A stretch of DNA of 64,000 nucleotides from Patescibacteria group bacterium (GCA_042569365.1 JBHPHK010000003.1:3047-67046), one strand, 5' to 3'. Numbered from the stretch's first letter, positions 9,173 through 56,965 are shown. Numbers and translations are program-made. Notes: generated by a model not told the origin, from the sequence alone.

Positions 9173-9502
9173 TTAAGTTGTCTCAGGTCTGTTTGCGAGA
9201 AATGTCTGATAGAGAACAGTCAGCACATCGATGACTAACAGAATGACGAGCGTTATGATGCCATAGCCGCATGTCAGTATGTTACGATGTCCGGCGGAAA
9301 TAAAATCAGGCAATAAATTCGCAGAGAGCAGAATCTGTCCAACGGCAAGTAGCGTAACTCCGAAAAGAAACCAAAATTCATAGGCACGCACATACTCTTT
9401 TCTAAGAGCTCTTGAAAAACAGATTAAGCAAGTAAGGATTATTAGAATATCCAAAGCCATGAACTGCCCACTGGTGAGTATTGGTAGATCAAACACGTAC
9501 AT
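9173..9502 (-). CDS. Hypothetical 4-TM membrane protein
   Basis: The ORF-track start is 9565. The internal ATG 9502 is preceded by GGAGGTG 5 nt upstream (minus strand: accagaGGAGGTGttATG). Confidence 0.5.
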   Translation of the reverse strand: MYVFDLPILTSGQFMALDILIILTCLICFSRALRKEYVRAYEFWFLFGVTLLAVGQILLSANLLPDFISAGHRNILTCGYGIITLVILLVIDVLTVLYQTFLANRPETT

Positions 9503-9603
9503 AACACCTCCTCTGGTTGAAGCTATTGCAGATAGGTTAAAGAACAACTTTACAGCATACCGCATCTATATATTATGTAAAGAGAAAGGCGTAAATATAT
9601 TTC

Positions 9604-9632
9604 TTGAATAAAAATACGCATTACGTTAAACT
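9604..9632 (+). promoter_or_regulatory. Sigma70-type promoter for the ftsB-like gene
   Basis: TTGAAT-N17-TAAACT. The -10 ends 11 nt before ATG 9644. Confidence 0.45.
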
Positions 9633-9643
9633 GACTTAAGTAT

Positions 9644-10066
9644 ATGCGTATAACATCTAAGGCCCGTCTTGAAAACGGGCAAAAAAACACCTCTAGCAAA
9701 AGATCATTTTTCGCATCGCGTTGGTTTATTATTACTGGCGTGCTAGTGTTGATGTTCGTGGTTGTCGCGTTCTCTCGCGAACTATACCGCAAAACTCAGC
9801 TCACTAACGAAATCGATCGGATTGCCGGAGAAATTGATGACTTACGCATTGGCAATGAGGAGCTTTCTGCTCTGATTGATTATTATCAAACGGAAAGCTA
9901 TCAGGAACTGAGTGCTCGTGAACACTTAGGGTTAACGACACGCGGCGAAGTAGTCATCTCGATCCCAAACGATCAGAACACTGAGGCGGTAGAAGCGGAA
10001 GAGGTGGACTACGCCAACGATCCTGAAACTTCTAATATCGATAAATGGTGGAACTATTTCTTTTAG
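9644..10066 (+). CDS. Septum formation initiator family protein (FtsB/DivIC-like)
   Basis: 140 aa. N-terminal TM helix, then a coiled coil, then ..AREHLGLTTRGEVVI, typical of DivIC/FtsB. Confidence 0.6.
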   Translation: MRITSKARLENGQKNTSSKRSFFASRWFIITGVLVLMFVVVAFSRELYRKTQLTNEIDRIAGEIDDLRIGNEELSALIDYYQTESYQELSAREHLGLTTRGEVVISIPNDQNTEAVEAEEVDYANDPETSNIDKWWNYFF

Positions 10067-10091
10067 TCACCAACATTAACTAACTAATCTT

Positions 10092-11174
10092 ATGTTTGCT
10101 TGGAAAAGCTTAAAAAGTAAAGGCAAGAAAAAAACTGACAAGAAAGGCCGCGGTAAATTTTATGGTTTACTGTCTGCCGGAGTTGTTGTCGGAATTTTGG
10201 TTGTCTTCGGCGTAGTTATTTATGCAACTGGCGCTACAAATACATTTGTCCGCGGCGTTACTAAAGTATTGCCTTACCCAACGATTTTTGTGAACGGTGT
10301 GCCTAGTACGTACAATTCTTTTGCGTATTCGGTAGCATCTCTGGAAGAGGCTTTCGAAAAACAGGAGGGGATCAACTTTTCTGATCCTTCCCAGGAGTCT
10401 TTCAAGACAGAAGTGCGCGAAAGCGTTTTGACTCACTTGGTTGAAGATCGCTTGGTGCGTCAGCTCGCAGCACAATACGGTGCGGTAGTTACACAGGAAA
10501 AAATTGATACTGTCATGCAGACGATTACCGGTGCTGACAACGAAAATCTCGAAGCTGTCGAGACCGAACTGGACGAGAAATACGGCTGGACCCTCGATGA
10601 TTATGTCAGTGAGGTTGTAATCCCGTCTTTATATCGTGAAGAGCTGCAGAAAATGGTTGTTACAGATGAAGAACTCAACAGCGAAGCTTACGCTAAGGCA
10701 CTAGAGGTTCTAGAGAAAGTCCAAGTTCCCGGCAGTGATTTTGGTGCAATCGCGAAAGAGTATAGCGAAGGTCCATCAGCAGAAAACGGGGGAGACCTTG
10801 GAACAACTGAGCCCGGCGCTTTCGTGCCAGAGTTCGAGGAAGCTGCTCGCGCATTAGAGCCGAGTGGAATATCTGGAATCGTGAAGACTCAGTATGGTTT
10901 TCATATTATCAAAGTGGTAGATAGGGATGGCGACTCTATGCACACTCGCCATATCTTGATCCAGGGCTTAGATTTTGAGAACTGGTTTTATGAGAAGCTT
11001 CAAAACGCCGTTATCTGGCTGCCGCTGTTTGGTTACAGCTGGGAACCAGAGCTCGGCATAGTCCAGGCGCGTGAAAAAGACACCGGACTTGAAGAGGGCG
11101 ACTGGATCACTGGAGACACAGAGACGACGGAAGCAGTTGATGCTACAGAAACAGCCGAAGACTCAGCAGAATAA
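10092..11174 (+). CDS. Membrane-anchored parvulin-type peptidyl-prolyl isomerase (PrsA/SurA-like)
   Basis: 360 aa. N-terminal TM helix and a PpiC domain motif GGDLG..FVPEFEEAA..G.SGIVKTQYGFHIIKV. Confidence 0.8.
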   Translation: MFAWKSLKSKGKKKTDKKGRGKFYGLLSAGVVVGILVVFGVVIYATGATNTFVRGVTKVLPYPTIFVNGVPSTYNSFAYSVASLEEAFEKQEGINFSDPSQESFKTEVRESVLTHLVEDRLVRQLAAQYGAVVTQEKIDTVMQTITGADNENLEAVETELDEKYGWTLDDYVSEVVIPSLYREELQKMVVTDEELNSEAYAKALEVLEKVQVPGSDFGAIAKEYSEGPSAENGGDLGTTEPGAFVPEFEEAARALEPSGISGIVKTQYGFHIIKVVDRDGDSMHTRHILIQGLDFENWFYEKLQNAVIWLPLFGYSWEPELGIVQAREKDTGLEEGDWITGDTETTEAVDATETAEDSAE

Positions 11175-11191
11175 TTTAATAAAACAAGAAG

Positions 11192-11218
11192 CACCCTCTC
11201 ACGCGAGGGTGTTTTTTG
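11192..11218 (+). terminator. Intrinsic terminator after the PPIase gene
   Basis: CACCCTC-tcacgc-GAGGGTG followed by TTTTTT. Confidence 0.8.
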
Positions 11219-11219
11219 T

Positions 11220-11294
11220 TGGAGCCGACGGTGAGATTCGAACTCACGACCTACACGTTACGAATGTGTTGCTCTACCCCTGAGCTACGTCGGC
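11220..11294 (-). tRNA. tRNA-Thr (anticodon CGT), CCA encoded
   Basis: The reverse complement reads GCCGACGTAGCTCAGGGGTAGAGCAACACATTCGTAACGTGTAGGTCGTGAGTTCGAATCTCACCGTCGGCTCCA. Acceptor stem GCCGACG/CGTCGGC, T-loop GTTCGAATC, anticodon loop TTCGTAA. Confidence 0.9.
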
Positions 11295-11319
11295 CGATTA
11301 AATATTATGACTCTAGATC

Positions 11320-11347
11320 ATTGTACTGCAATAAGTATATTTTTCAA
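11320..11347 (-). promoter_or_regulatory. Promoter for tRNA-Thr (minus strand)
   Basis: The minus strand reads TTGAAA-N16-TACAAT, about 25 nt upstream of the mature tRNA 5' end. It sits back-to-back with the plus-strand promoter at 11351. Confidence 0.55.
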
Positions 11348-11350
11348 CTC

Positions 11351-11359
11351 TGTTATACT
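11351..11359 (+). promoter_or_regulatory. Extended -10 element (TGtTATACT) ending 9 nt before ATG 11369
   Basis: TG at 11351-11352, TATACT at 11354-11359. No SD between the -10 and the ATG. Confidence 0.45.
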
Positions 11360-11368
11360 TAAAGAGTT

Positions 11369-11671
11369 ATGGCAACTAAATTTGCTCAAAAAGTTTATAG
11401 GGCGCTTGCTAAGGTTCCAAAAGGGAAAGTGACAACTTATGGAAAGTTGGCGCGGATAGCTGGGAGTCCAGGTGCAGCGCGTGCTGTAGGCAGTTTAATG
11501 CGCAATAATCAGCATCCTGAAATTTATCCGTGCTATAAAGTGGTCTTAAGCGATGGGCGCGTCGGGTCTTACAGTGGGCCAGGCGGTCAGGCTAAAAAAA
11601 TAAAATTACTGCGGCGTGATGGAATAGTAATCGAATCCGGCCGGATAAATAAGCTAGACCAGTTTGTATAA
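11369..11671 (+). CDS. MGMT-family protein (methylated-DNA-protein-cysteine methyltransferase DNA-binding/active-site domain only)
   Basis: 100 aa. VPKGKVTTYGKLA...AVG.....N...I.YPCYKVV..DG..G.Y matches the Ogt/Ada C-terminal domain, but the PCHR motif reads PCYK. Confidence 0.7.
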   Translation: MATKFAQKVYRALAKVPKGKVTTYGKLARIAGSPGAARAVGSLMRNNQHPEIYPCYKVVLSDGRVGSYSGPGGQAKKIKLLRRDGIVIESGRINKLDQFV

Positions 11672-12179: not shown

Positions 12180-12719
12180 ATGGCATTCTTCAACTTTTCA
12201 CCTAAACGTAAAAATATTAAAGCCGACAGTAGTAATGAACGGCGCTTGAAAATCAACGAGCCGGTCACGGCCGCACCCGGATCTAATCTGTATTGCCCTG
12301 GTTGTCATTCAGTTTATTATAAAAAAGCCTGGCATAACAATCCGCAGCTGTTTGAAGAGGTGTCGCAGGATTCAAATAACGCTCAGCAATGTCCCGCCTG
12401 CCAACGCATCAAGGATAACACTCCGCTGGGCATTTTGACTTTAGAAAATATCGAAGATGCAGAGCATCGCCAAATGCTGATCAATACCATTGAAAACATT
12501 GGAGAACGAGCCCAGGCGCGTGACTCTCAGGAACGTATTATGAAGATAGAAGAAACTGGCAATAAGTTGGAGGTTTACACGACCGAAAACCAACTTGCGG
12601 CCGGCATCGGACGCCAGATTAAAAAAGCGTTTGGTGGCAAGCTTCAGATAGACTTTTCACAACAGCGCCATCATGACAGTCTGGCACGTGTTACCTGGAA
12701 ACACACCCCCAAAAATTAA
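12180..12719 (+). CDS. Hypothetical zinc-ribbon protein (CPGC...CPAC); resembles NMD3-related bacterial proteins from memory only
   Basis: 179 aa. Two CxxC pairs 36 residues apart. The stop overlaps the prfB ATG (TAATG). Confidence 0.4.
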   Translation: MAFFNFSPKRKNIKADSSNERRLKINEPVTAAPGSNLYCPGCHSVYYKKAWHNNPQLFEEVSQDSNNAQQCPACQRIKDNTPLGILTLENIEDAEHRQMLINTIENIGERAQARDSQERIMKIEETGNKLEVYTTENQLAAGIGRQIKKAFGGKLQIDFSQQRHHDSLARVTWKHTPKN

Positions 12720-13823
12720 TGGCGACTTTAGCTAAACAAATCGAAGAATTGCTTGCGCGGATTAAGTCCACGCGAGACTGTCTTTGACCTAAGTCAGCAA
12801 AAGCAAAAACTTCTAGAACTGCAAGAGCAGATGACCGCTGCTGGCTTTTGGGATGATCAGAAAAAAGCGCAAACAGTAAGTCGCGAAGCAGCACGCTTAG
12901 AGGAAACATTGCAGCTCTGGGAAGGACTAGAGAAACAGAGTCAGGACTTGCAAGATATATCTAAACTGGCCGAAGGGGAAAAAGATGCTGAACTTACAAA
13001 GGAGGCGGAAGAAAAGCTAAAGGAGCTTAAAAAAATGTTTGAAGAGAAAGAGGTTGAAGCTCTCTTAAATGAGCCATATGATCAAAACAATGCTATCGTT
13101 GCGCTGCACGCTGGGACAGGCGGCACCGACGCGCAGGATTGGGCTGAAATGCTGATGCGCATGTACTTACGTTTTGCAGATAAAGAAAAGCTGAAAATTA
13201 GCGTAGCCGAAGTATCCAGTGGTGAAGAAGCGGGGATTAAGAGCGCAGTTTTACATGTCAAAGGAGATTTGGCGTACGGCAAACTGAAAGCTGAGAATGG
13301 AGTGCACCGGCTCGTGCGTCTCTCGCCATTTAACGCGGACCAATTGCGCCAAACTTCATTTGCGCTTGTAGAAGTTTTACCAGAGATAGGGGACGTCGCC
13401 GAAATCGAAATCCAGCCTGATGAACTGCGGGTTGATACTTATAGAGCAAGCGGTAAGGGAGGACAGCATCTCAATAAAACCGACTCAGCGGTTCGGATTA
13501 CCCATATGCCGACCGGTCTGGTGGCGGCGAGCCAAAGCGAGCGCAGCCAAGCTCAAAACAAAGAACAAGCCCTTACGATTTTGCGTTCCAAGCTACACCA
13601 GAAATATGAACAAGAAAAACAGCAGGAAAAACAAAAAATTCGCGGTGAATATACAGAGGCTGTTTGGGGCAATCAGATCCGATCCTACGTCTTACATCCG
13701 TATAAAATGGTTAAAGACCACCGTACAAAGTATGAGACAGCGAACGCTGAGAATGTTCTGGACGGGGACTTAGGCAAATTTATTGAAGCCTATCTACGCT
13801 GGAGGGCTAAATGCGCAATTTAG
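12719..13823 (+). CDS. prfB: Peptide chain release factor 2, made by a programmed +1 ribosomal frameshift
   Basis: Frame 0 reads ATG 12719...TGT CTT TGA (stop 12785-12787). The +1 frame continues GAC CTA AGT... to 13823. The product carries SPF (RLSPFN) and GGQ (SGKGGQHLN) motifs. The ORF-track start 12753 is an artefact of the shift. Confidence 0.9.
12782..12788 (+). promoter_or_regulatory. prfB +1 frameshift site CTT TGA C
   Basis: Identical to the canonical autoregulatory RF2 slippery site (CUU UGA C). Confidence 0.9.
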
Positions 13824-16298: not shown

Positions 16299-16327
16299 TT
16301 GACAGAGAGAATTTATTGTGATAGAGT
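16299..16327 (+). promoter_or_regulatory. Promoter for the lipoprotein gene at 16443
   Basis: TTGACA-N17-TAGAGT with TGa immediately upstream of the -10. Leaves a leader of about 110 nt ending in ccaAAAGGAGGtaagtcaaATG. Confidence 0.55.
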
Positions 16328-16442
16328 ATGCTGTTGTCAGCTCTAAGTAAATGCATTTAAGAGCATATCGTGGAACTGATAATATGCAAATTAACAAACA
16401 CAACTGATTTGACCTAATCCAAGCCAAAAGGAGGTAAGTCAA

Positions 16443-17327
16443 ATGAAACTCAGATTATTATTTCTCTTTGTGGTTGCTTTTTTAAGTCTGGCGTTGCTTT
16501 CTGGCTGCATAAGAGCTGGAAAAAACACAGTAACGGGCCCCTCTGATTTTATTGGAGGACAAGTAATTGATACACCCGGAAAGATCACCGCAGGATCTCA
16601 TGCTGGAATGAGCACTATCGCTTTGTGGGTTGAAGAAGAAAGTGCTACACGCTTTTCTGAACTCATATTTGAAGGAGCTCCCGGATCAGAGGATTGTATC
16701 GGCAGTTATAGAATTAGTGGGGGGATTAGCGACGAACCAATCCAGGATGGTCTTTGGCTAGTAAGCTTCAATACTACCAATCTTTTAGATCTCCATTCTG
16801 ACACTCGCTGGCGACACACCTTTATCGATCCTTTGACACATGATCGACTGGGAACCGCACTAATTACATTACCGTCCGCATACACTGTCTATGATGAGAG
16901 TACCTTTGCTTTGAGATATTCTTATGAAAGATATCAGCAAGGCCTTGGTATACTTTGTCCTCCTGAAAACTTAAGTGTATTCACGGTGGACGGCGGCAGC
17001 AGTTATGATGTAACGCAGTTCAGTTTGATGGTCGAAACTGGCGATGAATTCAAGTATACAACAGTACGATTAATGGATCCGACCGGAATTCTGCCACCGT
17101 ACGACATACCAGTGCAATACAACAATACGACGCCCAAAGACTTTCAAACAGGCTGGTGGTATATGGCATTCAGAGCGTTGCCCGACGCTGAAATCGACAG
17201 GCGTTGGCAGTTTGACTTTCTGGATGGCATGGGCGAGATACTAAACCCATCACGACTAGAGATCAGAACAACCGATATGGTCACTATTGTAGATGGTCAC
17301 TTCGCCCTTGTAGAGCATGTGCCCTAA
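16443..17327 (+). CDS. Lipoprotein with two tandem beta-sandwich-like repeats (distant member of the RWxFxF family at 26751 and 27737)
   Basis: 294 aa. Signal peptide with lipobox LLSG|C and a strong SD. Repeat motifs GLWLVSFN..DTRWRHTFIDP and GWWYMAFRALPDAEIDRRWQFDFLD..HFALVEH. Confidence 0.6.
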   Translation: MKLRLLFLFVVAFLSLALLSGCIRAGKNTVTGPSDFIGGQVIDTPGKITAGSHAGMSTIALWVEEESATRFSELIFEGAPGSEDCIGSYRISGGISDEPIQDGLWLVSFNTTNLLDLHSDTRWRHTFIDPLTHDRLGTALITLPSAYTVYDESTFALRYSYERYQQGLGILCPPENLSVFTVDGGSSYDVTQFSLMVETGDEFKYTTVRLMDPTGILPPYDIPVQYNNTTPKDFQTGWWYMAFRALPDAEIDRRWQFDFLDGMGEILNPSRLEIRTTDMVTIVDGHFALVEHVP

Positions 17328-22792: not shown

Positions 22793-22801
22793 TGCTAAAC
22801 T
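22793..22801 (+). promoter_or_regulatory. Extended -10 element (TGcTAAACT) ending 9 nt before ATG 22811
   Basis: TG at 22793-22794, TAAACT at 22796-22801. No SD. Confidence 0.45.
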
Positions 22802-22810
22802 GCACTCACT

Positions 22811-23551
22811 ATGCGCCAAATTTTAAAGAAATACATTCAATTTTGGGAAGTTTCCCTGATTATTATATTGCTAGTGACAGCGGGTACTTTTTTTGTGAGC
22901 ATTGTTTTGCCGTCTGAGTATCAAAGCGAGTCAACCGTCTTGATTGTCCAAAAGCAGTCCAGCCTAGATCTTTTTAACGCAGCCAAGGCGTCGGAATACG
23001 TTTCAACAATTTTAGGAGAAGTTGTATATACCGACCAATTTATAACTGAGGTCATCAAGAACGACACAACTTTAAGTAATAACTTGCCACCCGACATCGA
23101 GCAGCGCAGTCGTGCCTGGGATAATTATTTGAGCTTAGCGCAGGTTGAAGGCGCCGGTATCTTACATTTTTCTTTCTCCTCATCTGATCCTGCTTTAGCG
23201 CAGCGTTATATGCAAGGCGTTGTTAATACTTTGCTTACGAACGCTGCACAATATCATGGTCGTGGTGCAGAAGTCGAGTTGCATGTCATCGACAATCCGA
23301 CTTTGGATGTGCAGCCTGTGCGTCCGCGTGTCTTTATGAATACGCTTGTCGGCTTTATTTCCTCATTGATTCTGGTCGGCATCCTATTTTATCTGGAAGA
23401 TATTTATAATATCCAACTTTTCCGCTGGAGCAAAAGGCGCGAAGAAGAATACTATGCGCCAGAAGAACAAACAGCTCTTGAAGCTCCCGATGTTGTCGAA
23501 GAACAGCAGGCGATCGAAGATTGGCTTAAAAGTGGCGAAAAAAAGCAGTAG
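22811..23551 (+). CDS. Wzz-like polysaccharide chain-length determinant / co-polymerase protein
   Basis: 246 aa. TM helix near the N-terminus followed by PSEYQSESTVLIVQ, and a second TM helix near the C-terminus (PCP topology). Confidence 0.5.
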   Translation: MRQILKKYIQFWEVSLIIILLVTAGTFFVSIVLPSEYQSESTVLIVQKQSSLDLFNAAKASEYVSTILGEVVYTDQFITEVIKNDTTLSNNLPPDIEQRSRAWDNYLSLAQVEGAGILHFSFSSSDPALAQRYMQGVVNTLLTNAAQYHGRGAEVELHVIDNPTLDVQPVRPRVFMNTLVGFISSLILVGILFYLEDIYNIQLFRWSKRREEEYYAPEEQTALEAPDVVEEQQAIEDWLKSGEKKQ

Positions 23552-42682: not shown

Positions 42683-44050
42683 ATGAAAAAGCCCTCAAAA
42701 CAAGTTAGAACGCGTATTGCACCGTCTCCGACGGGATTGCTGCATTTTGGTACTTTGCGTACCGCGCTGTTTAATTATCTCTTTGCCAAGAACAATGGGG
42801 GAGAGTTTATTGTGCGCATTGAGGATACAGATAAGGAACGTTCTAACGCCGCTTTCGAAAAAAACATTTTGGACGGGATTGCCTGGGCGGGTCTTGAGTG
42901 GGATGAGGGTCCGGATAATCCTGGCAAGTTCGGACCGTATCGCCAGTCAGAGCGGGGGAGTGTCTATGAAAAATATTTCAAGATTTTGCAGGATTCCGGG
43001 CAGGCTTATGAAAAAGAGGGCGCGCTTCATCTGAAATTGCCGGAAGACATCAAGGAACTGACTATAAAAGACTTGATCAGGGGAGAGGTAACTTTCGATA
43101 TTACTCAGTTAAACGACATTGTCATCCGAAAGTCAGACGGTACGCCGACGTTTATGTTTGCGAATGCCTTAGATGACGCACTGATGGAGATCTCGCATGT
43201 GATCCGTGGAGAGGATCATCTTTCCAATACGCCCAAGCAGGTGATCATTTACCGGGCGTTAGGATTTGAGCCACCCGAGTTTGCGCACCTGCCACTGATC
43301 TTAAATCCAGATCGCAGCAAGATGAGTAAGCGCGCCGGTGACGTCGATGTAGACGCCTATATCCAGAAAGGCTATCTCCCGGAAGCTTTAATCAACTTTA
43401 TGGTTTTCCTGGGCTGGAATCCTAAGACGACTGAGGAGATCTTTTCACTTGCCGAGCTAGAAAAACGTTTTGATATCGCACAAGTCAACAAAGCGGGCGC
43501 CGTTTTTGACATCAAAAGACTAAACTACTTGAACAACAAATATGTCAATGAACTTTCCGAGGATGATTTCGTTACTTATTGTAAAAATCCTTTGCTAAAA
43601 GCTGGTTTGGTCGAAGAGAACGATTTCACAAACAAAAAAGACCGCGAGTATCTGGGGAAAATCTTAGATGTCATCAAAGACCGCACGGAAAATAACGAAG
43701 AGATCGCAGAGCAGGTCCAATTTTTCTTCAAGCCGGCAGAAGATTACGACGCCTCCAAAGTCATCTGGAAAAAGAGTGACAAGGATGAGACGATCAAAGC
43801 TTTGGCGGCAGCCGCGGAAGAGTTAGAGAAATTATCTGCAGCACAATACACCCACGAAAATATCGAGAAAGCTTGGCGGGCAAGATTAGAAAAAGAGGGG
43901 ATCGAAGCAGGTTCGTTTTTATGGCCGGTGCGCTATGCGCTTTCCCATGAAGATCGTTCTCCCGGCGCTTTCGAAATGGCGGCAGTTTTAGGAAAAAAAG
44001 AGTCCATGCAGAGAATCAAGGAAACGATTTCTAAGTTGGAGAAGAGTTAA
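42683..44050 (+). CDS. gltX: Glutamate--tRNA ligase
   Basis: MKKPSKQVRTRIAPSPTGLLHFGTLRTAL (HIGH-type motif), KMSKR, class I GluRS length. The track start 42617 extends the ORF upstream across the extended -10 element (42665-42673). Confidence 0.9.
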   Translation: MKKPSKQVRTRIAPSPTGLLHFGTLRTALFNYLFAKNNGGEFIVRIEDTDKERSNAAFEKNILDGIAWAGLEWDEGPDNPGKFGPYRQSERGSVYEKYFKILQDSGQAYEKEGALHLKLPEDIKELTIKDLIRGEVTFDITQLNDIVIRKSDGTPTFMFANALDDALMEISHVIRGEDHLSNTPKQVIIYRALGFEPPEFAHLPLILNPDRSKMSKRAGDVDVDAYIQKGYLPEALINFMVFLGWNPKTTEEIFSLAELEKRFDIAQVNKAGAVFDIKRLNYLNNKYVNELSEDDFVTYCKNPLLKAGLVEENDFTNKKDREYLGKILDVIKDRTENNEEIAEQVQFFFKPAEDYDASKVIWKKSDKDETIKALAAAAEELEKLSAAQYTHENIEKAWRARLEKEGIEAGSFLWPVRYALSHEDRSPGAFEMAAVLGKKESMQRIKETISKLEKS

Positions 44051-46977: not shown

Positions 46978-47073
46978 GTAATGTACTCTTTGACACGGTG
47001 TCTTAGTGTACTATGGAAAAAACAGCTATTTGACAATCCCTATAAACAATCCCTACACACGGAGGACGAAACA

Positions 47074-49101
47074 ATGAAGAAAACTCTGGTTTTTCTCGCA
47101 ACCCTGGCAATTTTGGTGCTGGTGGGACCCACAATGGTGTGGAGCCAACAGCTTCAGAAACATGACCTGAACAGTGAATTTACCGCGAATCGTGCGGAGT
47201 ATGTCCTGGCACAAAGGGGAGTCACGTCTGCTTTTTTTAACCTCTTCGGAAGTCTTGATGAGCGGCAGACGATCCTGGCCGGGAAAATCTGTTTGGAATT
47301 CGAAAATGCCCAAATCGACAGTTTCCTGCAAGCACAGAGAGACGGTTTGATTCCGGCACATGCAGTAATTCCAATGCCGAAAATGCTTTCGGTGCAAATC
47401 ATCGATACGGCCGTGGCTATCAAAGCTGCTGGTCGTGACACACCCAATCCTGATTTGCAGGCGGCCGGCGGTGCTGATAAGCAACTGGCAGGTAGCTTTA
47501 CTCGTCTGGTACTTGCCAGCGGTGAAACTGCCGTAACGGTTGAATACCCGAACGACTGTCCAGGTCTAACATTCCAAGAATGTATGGACGCAAACGAGCC
47601 TGTAGCGGAAGCAGCGGATCAGGATCTTGTAATCATTATTACAGAGCCTAATCCCTTTACCGCTACTACCAAGAGCAGCTACAAGCTCGGCGCCTATGGC
47701 GGCACGATTATCCGTGCCATCAACGGCGGAACTGGAATCAAGTGGACTTACCTTAAATTCCAGTTTGACCATCAGGCGATTTTTGCCAAGTACGGCAAGG
47801 ATTACTCTGGTGCGGTCATCGATCCCGAAGTTAACGGGGCCACGTTCTGCATCGCCGCAGATCTGGGTGCGAACATTATAGTTGAAAACGTCATGCAGGC
47901 CAATGTTGGTGCGACCTCGGCATCCCAGTTTCGGTTCAACAACGTGATTTTCACGAATGTGAACTATGAAACGCAGGATGTGCGAGCCATCGATATTCCG
48001 CAGTTAGCTGCGGGGCAGGTGATTGACTTTACTAACGTCACTGTTAGCGGAGTCAACGCCGGTGACGGTATCGCAATCTACGATGCTACTAACGACGGGA
48101 CGTTTGTTGGTGATAATGTAAGAGTATCCGGAGCCTTTAACCAAGGTTTCTATGCGACTTGCAGTACTTACCTTACGAAGTCTCGTTTCGGCGGAAATTC
48201 TCCAGGCGTGTTTGTTGCAGGAGACTGTAGCGACGCATCGCTGGTGAAATTCTATACTAGCAATAGCATCTTCGATGGCAACGGCCACGGCATACTCTTG
48301 TTTAGTGTCTCAAATGATCCGACAGTTGGCATTTCAATGCCGACGGGTGATAGAGCCTCAATCGAGAATTGTCGCATCCGTTCCAATGGAACGGATGGAA
48401 TCCACACAGACTACTGTGCGAATGTCAATCTCTACGGCAATAACATTGCCCAGAACTTGAATGGTATCTCGTACAATAGCTCGTCTGGGATGATTCATCG
48501 CAACATTTTTACGCAGAACACGTATAATGTCGCGGTAGGATCGTCTCTGGCCGACACCTGCGTTGATTACGGCGTTCCAAATCTCGGTGACGTCACTTTC
48601 TGCGGTTGGAATAGCATCACCAGTAGCCCGGGATCAACTACGCCTACAGTCGATGGCGGATTGATCTGGCTCGATCCAACGGGCGGCGCTACGCTTACTG
48701 CTCACGCAAACTGGTGGGGCGCGTCTGCACGTGACGATCTCGCGACGTATTTCCATCTTGGAGCAGGCTCAAGTGTTGAACTTGATCCGGCGACAACCGG
48801 GAACGTCGAAGTCGGCAAAGGACTTGTTAGTCCTTTAATGTCTGGCGCGGTTGGCGAGCTGGAACTTACCAAAAACGTCGACGGTCTCAATATCGACATT
48901 GTCGATCTGAACTGGACCGATCCACCCACTACAGCCTACGTACGGTGGGGGAATGATCCGTCAACTGTTCGTGCCTCAGGCACGCTGGATCCTATGACCA
49001 ATGGTTTCCTGCAGCAGTTGATTGACGGAGTAGAGACTCTCTACTACGTACGCGTGGATACAGAGCCTTACATCAATCCTGATGAGGCAACTTGTCCGTA
49101 A
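47074..49101 (+). CDS. Large secreted right-handed parallel beta-helix protein (paralog 1)
   Basis: ATG 47074 is preceded by GGAGGA; the track start 46981 lacks support. Signal peptide. Beta-helix repeat stretch NCRIRSNGTDGIHTDYCANVNLYGNNIAQNLNGISYN..., and the LTAHANWWG motif common in NosD-like beta-helix proteins. Confidence 0.65.
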   Translation: MKKTLVFLATLAILVLVGPTMVWSQQLQKHDLNSEFTANRAEYVLAQRGVTSAFFNLFGSLDERQTILAGKICLEFENAQIDSFLQAQRDGLIPAHAVIPMPKMLSVQIIDTAVAIKAAGRDTPNPDLQAAGGADKQLAGSFTRLVLASGETAVTVEYPNDCPGLTFQECMDANEPVAEAADQDLVIIITEPNPFTATTKSSYKLGAYGGTIIRAINGGTGIKWTYLKFQFDHQAIFAKYGKDYSGAVIDPEVNGATFCIAADLGANIIVENVMQANVGATSASQFRFNNVIFTNVNYETQDVRAIDIPQLAAGQVIDFTNVTVSGVNAGDGIAIYDATNDGTFVGDNVRVSGAFNQGFYATCSTYLTKSRFGGNSPGVFVAGDCSDASLVKFYTSNSIFDGNGHGILLFSVSNDPTVGISMPTGDRASIENCRIRSNGTDGIHTDYCANVNLYGNNIAQNLNGISYNSSSGMIHRNIFTQNTYNVAVGSSLADTCVDYGVPNLGDVTFCGWNSITSSPGSTTPTVDGGLIWLDPTGGATLTAHANWWGASARDDLATYFHLGAGSSVELDPATTGNVEVGKGLVSPLMSGAVGELELTKNVDGLNIDIVDLNWTDPPTTAYVRWGNDPSTVRASGTLDPMTNGFLQQLIDGVETLYYVRVDTEPYINPDEATCP

Positions 49102-49289: not shown

Positions 49290-49392
49290 AAACATCAATC
49301 TCCTGCGCCTGTTTTCAGGTATAATGGGGTTGAGAAAACAGTTGAAATGATCTTTTAGAACTAAATACCAAACACCAAAAAGGAGGACGATT

Positions 49393-51957
49393 ATGAAAAC
49401 GTCTATTCTTCTCAAAGCAGTGCTCATGGCACTGATACTGGTGGTTATGGCACCTATTTTCTGGTGTCTAGACACTGCCAGTGATGACTGTACTCTCGAC
49501 GACTCGATTCGGGCACAAGAAATTCTGTGTGACAGGGGAGTAAAAGACGCTTTCTATGACCTCTTTGGAGGTCTCAATGAGCGCCAAACGCTTCATGCTG
49601 CGCAGATCTGCCTGGACTTCGAACAGGAACAGCGAATACGTTCTGAAGCCGCTTTCAAAGCTGGCTTAATTACGCAAATTCCTACGCCTGTTGCACTCAA
49701 CATGCAAATCATCGACACAGCCGCTGCAATTAAAGCTACTGGTTCTGGAAATCCGAATGTGGAACTTCAGAATACCAATAGCAGCAAAGACAAATGGCTG
49801 GCCGGCATTTTTATCCGATTATTACTTGATGGTGGCGAAACCGCTATCGTCAGGCACTACCCGGGTGACTATGTGAGTGGCGGAACCAAAGTGGCCTATC
49901 TACCATTCCAACAAGCAATCGATGCACTCGAACTCGAAGGTGAAGCAGAGGACAAGGATGTGGTTTTGATTGTAACGGAAGCGAACCCATTTACAGCCAC
50001 TGCTAAAATAGCCTGTGAACCGGGCGCCCACGAGGGCGTGGTGATCAGAACCGTCAACGGCGCAACTGGAATCAAATGGTTTGATCTTCGGTTCGAGTAT
50101 GACCAGGCAGCAAACATTGCCAAGTACGGTAAAACGTTTATGCCCATCATCGACGCCTCGGTCAATGCCGCGACATTCTGTATCACAACAGACTTGAACT
50201 GCAATGTCCGAGTCTCCGGCGTGGATCTTGTCAACGAAGGTGATACGTCTGCAGTGCAATTTCGCTTCTGCAACGTGTACCTGGATGACATTACCAGTTC
50301 GGCGCAGCTCACAACCTTTATTGATATTCCGGACCTCCTAGCGGGGCAGGTTATTGACTTTAAGGATGTGAGGATCAATGGAGTAGCGTCTGGAAGAGGA
50401 ATTCACATTTATGATTCCGATCTAGATGGAACATTCATTGGTGAAGGACTGAACATTAGCGGCACGTTTTCACTGCCGATCCACACGTGGTGCAATACTA
50501 GTATTACCAACTCTAACGTGAGTGGTAATAATGGTGGAGGCATCCGCGTAGATGGATACAGCATGAGCTGTGCTAATACCAATGTCGCTGTGAATCTCGA
50601 TAATGTAGTTATCGATGGCAACAGTTCAGTTGCGCTGATGCTTAGTTTTGTGCAAGACGATGCTGGACTTGGAGAAACCATGCCTAGTGGCGCTAGCGCA
50701 ACTGTTGCGAACTGCAGAATCAGGAGTAACGGTGGCGGTGCCGGTGCAATGATCGACGGCTGTGGCCCCATAAACTTCTGGCGAAACAACATTGGTAAAA
50801 ACAATGTTGGTATCGTCATGGAAGAAACGGCGGGTGACTTCGCACAGAACATTATCACGCAAAATGATAAGGGAATAGTCACGAATACGATTTCGGATGC
50901 CGTGTGGTGTTCACAAGGCCTTGACACGCCGGTTCCCAATTTGGGAGACGACACCTGGTGCGGAGTGAATATCATTGCCGATACGACCAGCCGGCTCATC
51001 GACAACAATTTGAACACCATGCTGACGGCCCACGGCAACTGGTATGGTGATAGTGCTCTGCCTAACCCGAGTGTTTACATGGAAGGCAACGTGGATCTGG
51101 GTACTTCGCTTCCTAATCCGCCTAAAGCAGGCGCGGTAGGGGAGATCGAACTGTCTTTCAATCCTGACGGCGTTAATATCGACATTGTCGATATTAATTG
51201 GGCAGATCCACCGCCTGGCAGTGCCGAAGTCTACTATGGCACCGACCCCTCTCAGGTCAGTGCTTACACTACAGCATTTGGTGTAATGGTAGACGGGCTA
51301 TATCAGTATCCGGTGGACGATGGTAACGTGACGACTTTCTTCAAACGGAAGGAAATCGAGCCTTACTTCGACCCGGACACCGACCCGTGTCCAGGTGACA
51401 CCCAGAGTATTGGAACGCTTCAATACATCGATGGCGTCAAGTCATATGATCCGGATGGTGAAGTCTGGTATATCCAGTGGAAATTCAGCAGTGCTGATGA
51501 TCAAGCTCTCTACGCTGATGGTCCTGCCCGTGCCGGGTACGCCTATTGGTTTGGGGCATTGGAAGAAAAGGGGCAGGCTGTGTTTCCGCTGACGGACATA
51601 AGTCCAGGTGTAGAAATTGAGTTCTGGGATCAGTTGGACCCAAGCAATCCAGTCTATCTGACAGGAAACGTTGTGGTGAAAACTGGCAATCTCAATCTTC
51701 CCTTTAATGGTGTTTACCATTGCGGGGAGTGGGATGGACTGACTCGAACAGAGTGTGAAAGCTTTGTTCCCATCAGTCTGACCGGAAGCACTGAAGTACC
51801 GCTTAACAATCAGCATTCCTTCTTCTTAAATGAAGGAAATCTGCCCTCCTTAGATGGTGACTATGTTATCATCGAGTTGGCAGATGGCATGCTTTTCAGT
51901 GAGCCAATGATTAACTGGACAAGTTCAGGGGTCATGCACATCAACGTGACATTCTGA
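49393..51957 (+). CDS. Large secreted right-handed parallel beta-helix protein (paralog 2, with an extra C-terminal domain of about 180 aa)
   Basis: 854 aa. Colinear with the 47074 protein (shared blocks NPFTAT, GIKW, AKYGK, LAAGQVIDF, NCRIRSNG, VPNLGD, LTAHGNWYG, AGAVGEIEL, NIDIVDINWADPP, EPYFDPD). Confidence 0.65.
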   Translation: MKTSILLKAVLMALILVVMAPIFWCLDTASDDCTLDDSIRAQEILCDRGVKDAFYDLFGGLNERQTLHAAQICLDFEQEQRIRSEAAFKAGLITQIPTPVALNMQIIDTAAAIKATGSGNPNVELQNTNSSKDKWLAGIFIRLLLDGGETAIVRHYPGDYVSGGTKVAYLPFQQAIDALELEGEAEDKDVVLIVTEANPFTATAKIACEPGAHEGVVIRTVNGATGIKWFDLRFEYDQAANIAKYGKTFMPIIDASVNAATFCITTDLNCNVRVSGVDLVNEGDTSAVQFRFCNVYLDDITSSAQLTTFIDIPDLLAGQVIDFKDVRINGVASGRGIHIYDSDLDGTFIGEGLNISGTFSLPIHTWCNTSITNSNVSGNNGGGIRVDGYSMSCANTNVAVNLDNVVIDGNSSVALMLSFVQDDAGLGETMPSGASATVANCRIRSNGGGAGAMIDGCGPINFWRNNIGKNNVGIVMEETAGDFAQNIITQNDKGIVTNTISDAVWCSQGLDTPVPNLGDDTWCGVNIIADTTSRLIDNNLNTMLTAHGNWYGDSALPNPSVYMEGNVDLGTSLPNPPKAGAVGEIELSFNPDGVNIDIVDINWADPPPGSAEVYYGTDPSQVSAYTTAFGVMVDGLYQYPVDDGNVTTFFKRKEIEPYFDPDTDPCPGDTQSIGTLQYIDGVKSYDPDGEVWYIQWKFSSADDQALYADGPARAGYAYWFGALEEKGQAVFPLTDISPGVEIEFWDQLDPSNPVYLTGNVVVKTGNLNLPFNGVYHCGEWDGLTRTECESFVPISLTGSTEVPLNNQHSFFLNEGNLPSLDGDYVIIELADGMLFSEPMINWTSSGVMHINVTF

Positions 51958-52022
51958 CGTCTTCTCCTGAATTGGGGAGTAATCTTACTTCTCAATTCTA
52001 CTTACTAACCCAGGGGGTTGGA

Positions 52023-52064
52023 ACTTCTTTCGAAGTTTCAACCCCCTTTTTCTTTTACATAATT
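52023..52064 (+). terminator. Strong intrinsic terminator
   Basis: GGGGGTTGGAACTTC-ttt-cGAAGTTTCAACCCCC followed by TTTTTCTTTT. Confidence 0.85.
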
Positions 52065-52233
52065 TATGCTTAGATGAAGCAAGAGGGGAGTCACAGTATT
52101 TTGCCTCCTTCTGATGCTCCCTTCTAAGCGTTGCATTCTCTGATTTCGTAAGGCATGGCAGTGCCTTACTCCTCCTTCACCTCCTAGAATCAGTTAATGC
52201 TTTCGCTTGTTCACGCCTATCCCGAGGTGGAGT

Positions 52234-52272
52234 TTCATCCGAGACTCCACCTCCTTTTATATGGGTTAATAA
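52234..52272 (+). terminator. Terminator-like hairpin inside the gene-free region (or an SD-sequestering hairpin if read on the minus strand)
   Basis: GAGGTGGAGT-ttcatccgag-ACTCCACCTC followed by CTTTTATAT on the plus strand. Confidence 0.4.
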
Positions 52273-52449
52273 ACAATTTACGCGTCAAAGAAACACTCTA
52301 AGATACACCAAACTCAGATAAATCATATATAGAGCTTCGCATAAGGTACATTGTGCGACACAACATATATAGTTTCTGGGGCGTATTCTCCTACGTCCCC
52401 CGCCGAATAGGTATGTCGAGTTTGTTTATTTGTAATTACTCCATAACAA

Positions 52450-53136
52450 CTAGAGATTTATCTTAGGAGGTAGAGAATCTTGGGTATCCTGATATCTCTT
52501 CGGGTCATCAATAGTGTGAAAAGGACCATCGTATACATAGGCGTAAACAAGTTTTTTGGCAGCAAGTGAGGGGAATACATCAACTTCCAACGAACTTTTT
52601 GTGTTTTCGGGTATATGGGCGAATATGTCAGGTTCACACATGTATGGTCCCCCAACAGACACCCAGCCAGGTTCTGACCCAACTTTCTCTGTAAATTTAG
52701 TAACGCACATCGAATCCTCTGAAAACTCAACAAATCCATAGTCAGTAGAATCTTTCAGGTACTTCACTGGAAAAGTGACGACCCCTCCCCTCTCCAAGTG
52801 AAATTTTTTAAGAGCGTCCATGTCGATCCGCTTAATCTCATCAGCATTGGACACGCAAAATGTCTCGCTAATCTCATCACGCATAAGATCCAATGCTCCA
52901 CCCGTTCCGCGTTGCTCGGACTCCCCTATTATCGTGAAGTCATACTGAGTTTGTAGGGGCTCATATTGTTCAACAAAAACATTTTTCGTAATAACTATAA
53001 CGTCGTGCCCGCTGAGCTGTTCCAATAAATACGAAATCACCGGCCTACCGTTGATCGGCATCATCGGCTTGGAAATGGTTTTAGTGAGCGACTTGAGGCG
53101 TTCGCCCGATCCGCCTGCGAGAAGAATGACTTTCAT
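52450..53136 (-). CDS. Sugar-phosphate nucleotidyltransferase (NTP_transferase family)
   Basis: 228 aa. MKVILLAGGSGERLKSLTKTISKPMMPINGRPVI, the G-x-G-x-R-L signature of sugar-1-P nucleotidylyltransferases. Confidence 0.75.
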   Translation of the reverse strand: MKVILLAGGSGERLKSLTKTISKPMMPINGRPVISYLLEQLSGHDVIVITKNVFVEQYEPLQTQYDFTIIGESEQRGTGGALDLMRDEISETFCVSNADEIKRIDMDALKKFHLERGGVVTFPVKYLKDSTDYGFVEFSEDSMCVTKFTEKVGSEPGWVSVGGPYMCEPDIFAHIPENTKSSLEVDVFPSLAAKKLVYAYVYDGPFHTIDDPKRYQDTQDSLPPKINL

Positions 53137-53144
53137 TACTCACA

Positions 53145-53153
53145 ATTATAGCA
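53145..53153 (-). promoter_or_regulatory. Extended -10 element (minus strand TGcTATAAT) ending 8 nt before ATG 53136
   Basis: The minus strand reads ggtcTGcTATAATtgtgagtaATG. No SD. Confidence 0.5.
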
Positions 53154-55633: not shown

Positions 55634-55645
55634 TTTAAATAAATG

Positions 55646-55672
55646 AAAACCGCCTGCAGGGGCGGTTTTTTA
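55646..55672 (+). terminator. Intrinsic terminator after rpmA
   Basis: AAAACCGCC-tgcagg-GGCGGTTTTTT. Confidence 0.8.
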
Positions 55673-55674
55673 GA

Positions 55675-55703
55675 TTGTCAGTTTAGTATTCTGGTGCTAG
55701 AAT
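55675..55703 (+). promoter_or_regulatory. Promoter for the membrane-protein gene at 55784
   Basis: TTGTCA-N17-TAGAAT with TGc upstream. Confidence 0.55.
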
Positions 55704-55783
55704 ATAATACTTCGATTATATCTATATTCGGAGCAAACTCTTTAAAAAAACTATCAGACATACGAATATAAGGAGGTATGTTT

Positions 55784-56107
55784 ATGATCCGGAGATCAGA
55801 AAAACTAAAAATGATCAGACTGTTTAAAGCTATTACCTTTTTAATAGCTACGGGCTCGATTGGAATTGTGATAGCTGCATGCATTTTTTCGGTGGCGATT
55901 ACCAGCAAAACATTAACGCTCCAAAATATGGTTATTCTTTATGGATCATCCATTTTGGTGTATTTATCAGTTGGTCTGGTGGCAATCGGCTGGGTTGTAA
56001 AATCATATATGGCACTTCTCCCATATGGTGATTTAGTCTTTGAGCAGGAATCAGAGAAATCGCCTGGCCATCCGATAAGTCAGGAAGCGCCCGAACCTTC
56101 TTGTTAA
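55784..56107 (+). CDS. Hypothetical 3-TM membrane protein
   Basis: AAGGAGG at 55770-55776 is only 1 nt from the track ATG 55778 but 7 nt from ATG 55784, so the second ATG is preferred. Confidence 0.45.
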   Translation: MIRRSEKLKMIRLFKAITFLIATGSIGIVIAACIFSVAITSKTLTLQNMVILYGSSILVYLSVGLVAIGWVVKSYMALLPYGDLVFEQESEKSPGHPISQEAPEPSC

Positions 56108-56124
56108 TTCCAGCATTTTTAATC

Positions 56125-56156
56125 AAGAGCGTACCATTACGGTGCGCTCTTTTCAT
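56125..56156 (+). terminator. Intrinsic terminator
   Basis: AAGAGCGTACC-attac-GGTGCGCTCTT followed by TTCATTTT. Confidence 0.65.
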
Positions 56157-56186
56157 TTTAAAAACTTAAATGAGCGTTTTTATGGA

Positions 56187-56215
56187 TTGACAAAAGCCCT
56201 CTTATCTGCTAAGGT
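56187..56215 (+). promoter_or_regulatory. Promoter for the SWEET-like gene
   Basis: TTGACA-N17-TAAGGT with TGc upstream. The 85-nt leader ends aaccaAAAAGGAGGtttacggccATG. Confidence 0.6.
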
Positions 56216-56299
56216 AAACCATCCTGCTTAGGATAGGATAAGTTCTTTAAAAACCCCGCAACAGTAACCCGCTCAAAACCAAAAAGGAGGTTTACGGCC

Positions 56300-56965
56300 A
56301 TGGAGTTTGCAGAATTTCAGAACTTCGGATGGAATACGCTCACGTTCAGTTTCCTGGCCACCATCCTCTTTGGTGTCTTGGGAGCTTTGGGGTTGGTGGA
56401 TCAGATCAAGAAAATCTGGAGAAATCGCTCAGGAGAATCGGCGTCTGTGACGTTTGCGATTATCTTCGTAGCTTTTTTTATCGCATCCTTCATCTACGGC
56501 ATTGACAAGCACAGCCTTGCTCTTATTTTACAGGGGAGCATTTTTCGAACCGTTTTCTTTCCGCCCATTTTATATGGTTTGTGGAGATTCAAGGGCTATA
56601 CTTTGTTTGAAAAAATAGTAGCCTTTCTGTGTTCGTCTGCGATTGTTTATATGCTTACTTTGGATGACTTGAAAATCAAAGGCTATATTTTCCTGGGACT
56701 GGGTTTACTTGGTGTTTTAGCAACACTCAAACAAGCTTGGGAAATATGGAAAACTAAAAGCTCCGGAGTTGTTTCAATCAAGCTCATGTTGATCATACAT
56801 GCCAGCTCCGATTTTTGGCTGATTTATGGGATAGCACTACGTGATCACATGATTAAGTACATGTCGCTCGGCTATTTCATTGCCAATACCCTGGTTATCG
56901 TGTTTTGGTTTAAATATCGGACAAAATCTCCGGTAGCTACCATACCAAACAACATTTCATTGTAA
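56300..56965 (+). CDS. 7-TM membrane protein with two PQ-loop/SemiSWEET-like repeats (SWEET-like 3+1+3 architecture)
   Basis: 221 aa. Repeat 1 is GLVDQIKKIWRNRSGESASVTFAIIFVAFFIASFIYGI. Repeat 2 is ATLKQAWEIWKTKSSGVVSIKLMLIIHASSDFWLIYGI. Seven hydrophobic segments. Confidence 0.5.
   Translation: MEFAEFQNFGWNTLTFSFLATILFGVLGALGLVDQIKKIWRNRSGESASVTFAIIFVAFFIASFIYGIDKHSLALILQGSIFRTVFFPPILYGLWRFKGYTLFEKIVAFLCSSAIVYMLTLDDLKIKGYIFLGLGLLGVLATLKQAWEIWKTKSSGVVSIKLMLIIHASSDFWLIYGIALRDHMIKYMSLGYFIANTLVIVFWFKYRTKSPVATIPNNISL

Follow-up and report, generated by a model that had tools for sequence, protein, structure and literature searches.

How is translation started in a genome in which most genes have no Shine-Dalgarno (SD) sequence, and what distinguishes the few genes that carry a nearly perfect one? 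This question is raised by a 64,000-nucleotide (nt) stretch of DNA from an uncultured, ultra-small bacterium of the Patescibacteria group (GCA_042569365.1 JBHPHK010000003.1:3047-67046), which was analyzed as a whole and is referred to here as the window, with positions counted from its first letter. An initial annotation had listed twelve genes with a strong SD and proposed that two translation-initiation regimes coexist in one genome, with the SD route reserved for the surface proteome. The two-class layout is real. The explanation that we favor for it, and regard as somewhat probable, is that the SD class consists of strongly expressed, independently transcribed accessory genes, which are under selection for SD-dependent initiation in an otherwise SD-independent genome. 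The layout is of a broadly known kind, and not a dedicated route for exported proteins.

In the window we called 58 protein genes and two tRNAs, with the start codons assigned in this analysis and chosen by inspection. The strength of each SD was expressed as the energy of the duplex formed between the 17-nt segment that ends 3 nt upstream of each start codon and the anti-SD ACCUCCUUA, an assumed tail, the 3′-end of the host 16S rRNA lying outside the window. The resulting distribution was bimodal: 13 of the 58 genes had energies of -8.7 to -13.5 kcal/mol, none fell between -8 and -6 kcal/mol, and the remaining 45 were at -5.9 kcal/mol or weaker, with a median of +0.6. A genome-wide test of bimodality had been named in the initial annotation, and the clean gap obtained here for the window supports its proposal of two regimes. 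All 12 of the strong SD sites that it had listed were present with the motifs that it gave, and a further SD-led gene was found at 60537 on the minus strand (SD AAGGGAGG, -11.3 kcal/mol). The absence of an SD upstream of housekeeping genes was also confirmed, namely for murJ, lepA, prfB, ftsE, ftsX, lgt, gltX, rpmA, priA, def, fmt, and the S41 protease and glycosyltransferase genes. A TTG codon at 17626 (GGAGA, 9-nt spacing, -6.6 kcal/mol) is ambiguous as a weak fourteenth SD-led start.

Since the starts were picked by eye, the SD sites could be chance matches, or could result from a preference for start codons located behind an SD. Some of the open reading frames (ORFs) do reach upstream of the SD-led ATG (9565, 46981 and 42655), and the NCBI start of one gene, encoding an SLT-domain protein, differs from our SD-led call. 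We nevertheless consider such an artefact to be very improbable. Among 1,799 control ATGs that are not gene starts, only 1.2% reached -8.7 kcal/mol, compared with 22% of the genes (binomial p = 1.4e-13), and the non-SD genes paired with the anti-SD even more weakly than did the control ATGs. Six copies of the string AAAGGAGG-N4-9-ATG were counted in the window (0.23 expected), each of them at a gene of the SD class. The alternative upstream starts fall upstream of, or within, the predicted promoters, and the NCBI protein length for 47074 fits the SD-led start. Finally, a scan of the whole window for an SD followed by ATG and an ORF of at least 30 amino acids (aa) returned the 13 genes plus only eight other sites, of which six are within or antisense to annotated genes and two are short intergenic ORFs (38 and 50 aa). 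Additional SD-led small ORFs considered at 41236 (plus strand), at 49128 (minus strand) and in 52000-52290 (minus strand, three tiny ORFs) were left unsupported, being short and having neither homologs nor context.

The motif itself is uniform. GGAG is present in 13/13 SD sites and GGAGG in 12/13, within purine runs (AGGAGG up to AAAAAGGAGGA) that terminate 4-9 nt before the ATG. When the sites are anchored on GGAG, the consensus of the class is AAAAGGAGG, with A in 9-11 of the 13 sites at the four preceding columns and G in 12 of 13 at the following one. The near-identical tract that had been noticed at the end of four leaders was recovered as CCAAAA(A)GGAGG, which has four copies on the two strands of the window, found only at 16443, 27737, 49393 and 56300. 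The members of the class are not all independent, because they include the paralog pairs 47074/49393 and 16443/27737, and because 24741 and 26126 share a C-terminal domain. The SD-led units are as follows (TM, transmembrane).

9173-9581, minus strand: unit with a promoter-like TTTACA-16-TATGCT (9554-9581) and a predicted leader of ~45 nt; gene 9502, with SD AGAGGAGG (9507-9514) and ATG at 9502, encodes 109 aa with 3 predicted TM segments.
16299-17327, plus strand: unit with consensus promoter TTGACA-17-TGaTAGAGT (16299-16327) and a second candidate promoter nearer to the gene, TTAAGA-17-TGaTAATAT; gene 16443, with SD AAAAGGAGG (16426-16434) within gCCAAAAGGAGGt, encodes a 294-aa lipoprotein (lipobox LSGC).
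23603-26024, plus strand: two-gene operon with a consensus promoter (23603-23631) and a terminator hairpin (25997-26024); gene 23821, with SD AAGGAGGA (23806-23813), encodes 300 aa with a signal peptide, and the operon-internal gene 24741, with its own SD AAAGGAGG (24725-24732), encodes 408 aa with a signal peptide.
26041-26717, plus strand: monocistronic unit with promoter TTGACG-17-TGgTAATAT (26041-26069) and a hairpin (26676-26717); gene 26126, with SD AGGAGG (26115-26120), encodes a 178-aa lipoprotein (FSGC).
27631-28546, plus strand: unit with promoter TTGACA-17-TGaTAGGTT (27631-27659) and a predicted leader of ~70 nt; gene 27737, with SD AAAAGGAGGA (27719-27728) within aaCCAAAAGGAGGa, encodes a 269-aa lipoprotein (LIGC).
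41429-42655, minus strand: two-gene operon with promoter TTGACG-17-TGcTATTAT (42627-42655); gene 42565, with SD AAAAAGGAGGA (42570-42580), encodes a membrane-anchored SLT_2 lytic transglycosylase of 289 aa from the SD-led ATG, and gene 41683, with SD AAAAGGAGA (41689-41697), encodes 84 aa with no export signal.
47061-49101, plus strand: gene with SD GGAGGA (47061-47066), ATG at 47074 and an uncertain promoter TTGACA-16-TATGGA; the product is a 675-aa secreted right-handed beta-helix protein, and the start agrees with the NCBI protein length.
49377-52047, plus strand: gene with SD AAAAAGGAGGA (49377-49387) within caCCAAAAAGGAGGa, ATG at 49393 and a strong terminator (52012-52047); the product is an 854-aa secreted protein, an ORFan except for its paralog 47074.
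55675-56107, plus strand: unit with promoter TTGTCA-17-TGcTAGAAT (55675-55703); gene 55784, with SD AAGGAGG (55770-55776), encodes 107 aa with 2 predicted TM segments.
56187-56965, plus strand: unit with promoter TTGACA-17-TGcTAAGGT (56187-56215); gene 56300, with SD AAAAAGGAGG (56281-56290) within aaCCAAAAAGGAGGt, encodes a 221-aa polytopic membrane protein with an MtN3/PQ-loop (SWEET-like) domain.
60292-60612, minus strand: unit of the thirteenth gene, with promoter TTGACA-17-TATACT (60584-60612); gene 60537, with SD AAGGGAGG (60544-60551), encodes 81 aa with a Cys-rich N-terminus and a C-terminal TM segment.

The SD genes are closely associated with strong promoters. Eight matches to the strict pattern TTGACR-N14-TGNTANNNT were counted over the two strands of the window (0.08 expected), all of them in intergenic DNA, and six of these full-consensus promoters precede SD genes (16443, 23821, 26126, 27737, 42565 and 56300). 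The initial annotation had counted seven SD genes with a -35 box placed 17 nt from a TGnTAnnnT -10 box (TTGAC[AG] or TTGTCA), and this number is accounted for by the six strict copies plus 55784 with its TTGTCA variant. An independent promoter and terminator scan recovered the same promoters and placed terminators after 24741-25967 and after 26126-26662, which indicates that these are separate transcription units. Within the class, the -10 box lies 46-189 nt before the ATG, so that leaders of ~40-180 nt are predicted. The two remaining full-consensus promoters precede the non-SD genes 20094 and 21419; the proposition that a long leader always implies an SD was therefore rejected.

The 25 nt located 5′ of the SD contain 45% A, 23% C, 11% G and 21% T. 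The C+A content of 68% exceeds both the 57% found in the 25 nt before non-SD starts (p = 0.01) and the 52% found at positions -40 to -16 of the non-SD first genes (p = 0.0005). The proposed coupling of the SD class to consensus promoters and long CA-rich leaders is thus supported. As for the suggestion that these leaders are unstructured CA-rich enhancers, the richness in C and A stands, while a lack of structure applies to only some of them (folding z-scores of -2.5 to +1.5). C/A-rich enhancer elements 5′ of the SD were reportedly described by Sharma and co-workers in 2007 in enterobacterial transporter mRNAs, targets of the small RNA (sRNA) GcvB. The SD-led envelope genes of the window resemble those targets in having a CA-rich, G-poor tract directly 5′ of the SD, which in four cases takes the form of the shared tract described above. 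They differ in that their leaders are not uniformly unstructured and in that we saw no evidence of a G/U-rich regulator or of Hfq; an enhancer role is putative here, and some of the A tract may do no more than lengthen the duplex with the tail of the 16S rRNA. The leader of 23821 has a character of its own: its promoter lies 189 nt before the ATG (predicted leader of ~180 nt), a hairpin (GUCUGC...GCAGGC) is located just 5′ of the SD, and the leader, within 23603-23820, folds more stably than shuffled sequence (z = -2.5) and has no Rfam match. It may be a regulatory leader.

The non-SD majority presents a different picture. Of the 26 non-SD first genes, five have the extended -10 motif TGnTAnnnT at a distance of 8-9 nt from the ATG, where ~0.06 would be expected from window-wide frequencies (the two patterns were counted 7 times window-wide against ~4 expected, over ~1,860 ATGs, giving a chance of ~0.002 per ATG). 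These five leaderless-type starts are the following.

11351-11371, plus strand: ogt; TGtTATACT, 9 nt, ATG; no SD.
22793-22813, plus strand: gene for a Wzz-like membrane protein; TGcTAAACT, 9 nt, ATG; no SD.
40459-40479, minus strand: LigB-family gene; TGcTATAGT, 9 nt, ATG; no SD.
42665-42685, plus strand: gltX; TGtTACAAT, 9 nt, ATG; no SD.
53134-53153, minus strand: nucleotidyl-transferase gene; TGcTATAAT, 8 nt, ATG; no SD.

A plain TAnnnT is found 6-11 nt upstream of approximately seven more non-SD first genes. The -35 boxes of the leaderless-type promoters are poor. Further clusters of -10 boxes, at 14-18 and 24-28 nt upstream of non-SD first genes, point to short SD-less leaders. Both promoter types can be seen back to back in the 117-nt divergent region 42566-42682, where the leadered consensus promoter of the SD-led SLT operon (minus strand, 42627-42655) faces away from the leaderless-type extended -10 of gltX (plus strand, 42665-42673). 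Among the operon-internal genes, 19/21 have no SD; the gap to the stop codon of the preceding gene is -20 to +25 nt, and several overlap or abut that codon. One example is prfB (12719-13823), whose start lies in a TAATG overlap with the preceding gene. Its +1 frameshift site, CUU UGA C, is found at 12782-12788, after a first frame of 22 codons, and the sequence upstream of that site (cgcgagacugu) contains no SD-like run that could serve as the stimulator of frameshifting.

The 20 nt that precede non-SD starts are 42% A and 11% G, and over the 45 starts A is especially frequent at -6 (32/45, 71%), at -3 (49%) and at -13/-14 (51-53%). Predicted folding of the start regions (-30 to +30) averaged -5.4 kcal/mol for the non-SD genes, -8.8 for the SD class and -10.4 for random 60-mers of the window; the difference from random sequence was significant for the non-SD genes (p = 8e-13) and not for the SD class. 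Unstructured starts are consequently a feature of the non-SD class, and their attribution to the SD class was rejected. Since the non-SD starts fold least while the SD starts fold like random sequence, the split represents a known trade-off between an open start that has no SD and an SD that compensates for ordinary structure, here in an unusually clean bimodal form. Non-SD genes with unstructured starts have reportedly been described in cyanobacteria, plastids and low-SD genomes, by Scharff and colleagues in 2011 and by Nakagawa and colleagues in 2010 and 2017. As in those systems, the non-SD starts of the window are far less structured than the SD-led ones; those systems, however, are said to form a continuum over all functions, whereas here the split is bimodal and tied to promoter type and to accessory envelope genes.

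This last association brings up the question of whether the SD route serves export. According to a hydropathy scan, 12/13 SD genes encode membrane or secreted products, compared with 18/45 non-SD genes (Fisher p = 0.001). Signal-peptide-like N-termini, defined as a single segment with a hydrophobic core beginning within 6 residues, were found in 7/13 and 3/45 products, respectively (p = 0.0005; p = 0.016 after paralog families were collapsed), which supports an enrichment of the class in envelope proteins. All three lipobox proteins are SD-led, and most of the non-SD membrane proteins have a signal anchor behind a cytoplasmic N-terminus of 20-35 aa and not a cleavable signal peptide. In agreement with the initial annotation, 11 of its 12 products are either polytopic or hydrophobic in an N-terminal segment, and that of 41683 has neither feature. 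One may therefore suppose that leadered, SD-dependent initiation is mechanistically tied to Sec-dependent proteins and lipoproteins, for instance through the rate or timing needed for co-translational targeting, and that the SD class is the surface proteome by design.

Several observations made in the window oppose this supposition. The 18 non-SD envelope proteins include MurJ, FtsX, Lgt, DivIC, a PrsA-like protein, M23 and S41 peptidases, Wzy, both DUF4012 proteins and two proteins with classical signal peptides (34380 and 45778). Conversely, 41683 is SD-led and carries no export signal. The most telling of the non-SD envelope genes is 26751 (26736-27602), which is related to 16443 and is a tandem paralog (33% identity) of the SD-led lipoprotein gene 27737. 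Its start is of the leaderless type, TAAACT being placed 6 nt upstream of the ATG in the absence of an SD, and its product has an uncleaved signal anchor. The tandem paralogs 26751 and 27737, with their opposite start types, form a natural pair for probing the role of the SD class.

Evidence of the same kind came from other genomes. The source of the window appears, from a protein search with its S41 protease, to be a lone Patescibacteria lineage without close sequenced relatives: besides its own 100%-identical NCBI entry, an S41 family peptidase of a Patescibacteria group bacterium, the next best matches among 5.8 billion proteins have 44-52% identity and are named Uhrbacteria, Andersenbacteria, Parcubacteria, Moranbacteria or Minisyncoccota. 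A scan of genome contigs with Lgt gave, among the matches listed, only proteins of ≤50% identity from many phyla, and a metagenome scan with the S41 protein found four loci, all distant. The genes are of the kinds typically found in the candidate phyla radiation (CPR), with two DUF4012 proteins, many small membrane proteins without a Pfam match and a polysaccharide gene cluster, alongside the core genes murJ, lepA, prfB, ftsEX, lgt, priA-def-fmt, gltX, rpmA and the S41 protease gene. For comparison we used eight Patescibacteria loci around S41 homologs (GC content of 38% to 64%, 162 called genes), in which a gene was taken as SD-led at -8 kcal/mol or stronger. Only 8/162 genes were SD-led. The SD-less remainder resembles the non-SD class of the window, and some of its first genes are preceded by a -10 box at 6-8 nt.

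Just one of these eight SD-led genes encodes a membrane product, and type IV pilin-like and signal-peptide proteins of the same loci have no SD. In two of the loci (L081 and L092) the genes L081:5533 and L092:7126 are orthologs with 40% protein identity, whose leaders have diverged with indels, and both keep AAAGGAGGCG at the same spacing. They lie in L081 5453-5820 and L092 7046-7395, in Uhrbacteria-like genomes that are otherwise SD-poor, and encode small cytoplasmic proteins (95 and 89 aa) to which no function was assigned. The retention of the SD in this pair, together with the single membrane product among eight, indicates that SD-led status in this group is a selected, gene-specific trait that is not tied to export. 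An SD route serving the surface proteome exclusively is thus not supported, either within the window or outside it, and we hold a dedicated export route to be unlikely.

Another possibility is that the SD genes are relics of horizontal transfer, acquired from SD-using donors or mobile elements, with donor-type signals (consensus sigma-70 promoter and SD) that are merely tolerated. Compared with the syntenic backbones GT2-DUF4012-S41 and L27-methyltransferase (locus L083), and fmt-def-priA and LigT-gltX-M23 (locus L089), the SD genes are indeed insertions. SD status also tends to be operon-wide, as in 23821+24741 and 42565+41683 and, in the other loci, in the adjacent pairs L081:5533+5817 and L089:2485+2871. 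In addition, the GC content at third codon positions is slightly higher in the SD genes than in the non-SD genes (0.51 vs 0.46, p = 0.01), and one SD gene of locus L091 adjoins an integrase gene. However, no donor was found. Neither the SLT protein nor the beta-helix family of 47074 and 49393 has a homolog outside its own contig among the 5.8 billion proteins, and a PHROGs search with 10 SD proteins gave no match for nine of them, the SLT protein being matched through its transglycosylase domain only. Moreover, SD-class paralogs that have diverged to 23-42% identity within the lineage all keep strong, perfect SDs, the CCAAAA(A)GGAGG tract is common to four unrelated or anciently diverged genes, and the 40%-identity orthologs have kept their SD while the leader decayed. 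The shared extended context and the persistence of the SD amid diverged leaders argue for selection in place and not for leftover signals, which makes a simple relic of horizontal transfer unlikely.

The two beta-helix genes (47074-49101 and 49393-51957) are tandem paralogs with 42% identity, and their large, secreted products, which adopt a right-handed beta-helix fold, are surface proteins specific to this lineage. Gene 27737, for its part, is a paralog of the SD-led 16443 as well as of the non-SD gene 26751. In the case of the SLT gene (41696-42565, minus strand), the NCBI protein has 273 aa and starts at a GTG (42517) that has no SD, which is probably a mis-called start codon caused by the mixed start signals of this genome.

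The 492-nt gap between the terminator of 49393 and the nucleotidyl-transferase gene, whose 3′-end faces it, contains an unannotated, strongly structured segment, 52048-52300. CCTCC is clustered here and nowhere else in the window (4 copies in 150 nt vs 31 in 64 kb). The plus strand is predicted to fold with -82.7 kcal/mol (z = -7.0), with CCUCCU motifs exposed in a loop of 14 nt and in 17 nt of single strand, and its terminator-like 3′ hairpin reads CCACCUCCUUUU, which is exactly complementary to the class motif AAAAGGAGG. On the minus strand (z = -4.7) there are four AGGAGG motifs followed by ORFs of 10-18 aa. Judged from its sequence, the segment might act as an sRNA that mimics the anti-SD or as an SD decoy, or it might encode small peptides; a plus-strand transcript, if made, could mask the SDs of precisely the SD class. 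A CCTCC/GGAGG cluster in locus L082 was rejected as a similar element, being composed of palindromic terminator hairpins, and the motif clusters of locus L086 are not comparable.

Such a segment invites the reading of the SD class as a translational regulon. If only these accessory envelope and host-interaction genes need SD/anti-SD pairing, a change in that pairing would switch them as a block and leave housekeeping untouched, because the core genes initiate without an SD. The switch might be heterogeneity of ribosomes at the 16S tail, as with bS21 in Flavobacteriia, or an SD-masking trans-acting RNA, for which 52048-52300 is the candidate by virtue of its unique cluster and its plus-strand fold. 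A precedent is available from Flavobacterium, where two papers describe translation of the SD-led rpsU by ribosomes without bS21 (PMC9976891, PMC13000453). On the other hand, a promoter search of 52048-52300 found none, nothing credible was found in Rfam for 51900-52500, the minus strand also folds well, and a survey of CPR ribosomes reported a short bS1 and, for Parcubacteria, frequent loss of bS21 (PMC9297842). We consider a regulon of this kind to be quite improbable.

The explanation that we favor, namely SD-dependent initiation of accessory genes in an SD-independent genome, can be outlined as follows, with transcription starts, expression levels and the use of the anti-SD inferred from sequence. 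The default mode of initiation would do without an SD. Many first genes would be transcribed from extended -10 promoters lacking a good -35 box and placed 6-11 nt upstream of the start codon, a geometry implying mRNAs that are leaderless or nearly so, and operon-internal genes would initiate without an SD near, overlapping or abutting the upstream stop codon, in a coupled manner. The minority class would combine a full sigma-70 consensus promoter, a predicted leader of ~40-180 nt and the extended SD AAAAGGAGG. It would comprise lineage-specific accessory genes in transcription units of their own, including two operons with an SD on every gene. The 30S subunit would presumably be recruited to these mRNAs by SD/anti-SD pairing, which would compensate for start regions folded like average sequence, and the strong promoter and SD would together make these the most strongly expressed and separately controllable genes of the region. 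The dominance of envelope functions would follow from the nature of the accessory genes of an episymbiotic, genome-reduced lineage, which would for the most part encode lipoproteins, small membrane proteins and beta-helix proteins that are secreted. The association of the SD with export would then be a correlate of accessory, independent and highly expressed status, and no mechanistic rule.

Several points weigh against this explanation. The terms "leaderless" and "highly expressed" are both read from promoter geometry only. The gene rpmA, which is normally highly expressed, has no SD, so that high expression here does not need one. At least two non-SD genes behind full-consensus promoters, 20094 and 21419, have predicted leaders of 54 and 24 nt, and a long leader is thus not always paired with an SD. 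The envelope bias is strong, with 7/10 signal-peptide-like proteins being SD-led, and could still reflect an export-specific cause. The anti-SD of the host is an assumed one: an Rfam scan of the 64 kb matched the two tRNAs only, and no rRNA gene lies in the window. The SD kept by the 40%-identity orthologs of other Patescibacteria lends indirect support to an accessible anti-SD. Furthermore, the sample is one 64-kb window that includes paralogous families and whose starts were assigned by ourselves, one of them, that of the SLT gene, giving a product of 289 aa where NCBI has 273 aa.

The closest known arrangement is that of GeneMarkS-2 group C (Actinobacteria and Deinococcus-Thermus), for which the sections of Lomsadze et al. 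2018 (PMC6028130) dealing with this group describe leaderless first genes and SDs on the remaining genes. As in that description, many first genes of the window have a Pribnow-type -10 box 6-10 nt before the start, a second gene set carries a canonical SD, and a dual start model is needed. The window departs from it in three respects: (i) 19/21 operon-internal genes have no SD, where the group C model as described there expects one, (ii) at least two leadered genes behind consensus promoters are SD-less, and (iii) the SD set is a small, operon-specific accessory class located behind consensus promoters. The groups treated in those sections do not include the Patescibacteria.

Similarities were also found to the SD-less Bacteroidia, as represented by the pertinent sections of the work on Flavobacterium johnsoniae (Baez et al. 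2019, PMC6847099; Jha et al. 2020, PMC7797042; McNutt et al. 2023, PMC9976891). In Flavobacterium, A-3 and A-6 are positive, "Kozak-like" determinants of initiation, which also act in E. coli (PMC6847099). The window shares with the Bacteroidia a predominance of SD-less genes (45/58), A-rich and weakly structured starts (-3, -6 and approximately -12 to -14), and a few genes whose strong SD stands out. In contrast, F. johnsoniae has essentially one strong SD, that of rpsU (a gene outside the gene set of the window), and most of its mRNAs are leadered, whereas 22% of the genes are SD-led here and many of the non-SD genes look leaderless. In the Bacteroidia, the anti-SD is reportedly sequestered by bS21, bS18 and bS6. 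Unlike those of the Bacteroidia, the promoters of the window are of the sigma-70 -35/-10 type. The SD at the prfB frameshift site, missing here, is retained in the Bacteroidia according to PMC10798248. In the literature that we searched, no report on SD usage or leaderless mRNAs in Patescibacteria was found.

The Patescibacteria account for a large share of bacterial diversity, and their gene expression is almost unstudied. The present results do not overturn the known picture of translation initiation; they extend the established mixture of mechanisms by one lineage and by a bias in function. If the layout is genome-wide, start prediction in the CPR would need a three-way model comprising leaderless, coupled non-SD and SD-led genes, and the combination of a consensus promoter, a long leader and an extended SD would be a cheap marker of strongly or separately expressed accessory genes. 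In episymbionts, the accessory genes marked in this way would be the best candidates for host-interaction surface proteins, and the SD-class cassettes would provide ready-made CPR expression signals for genetic tools.

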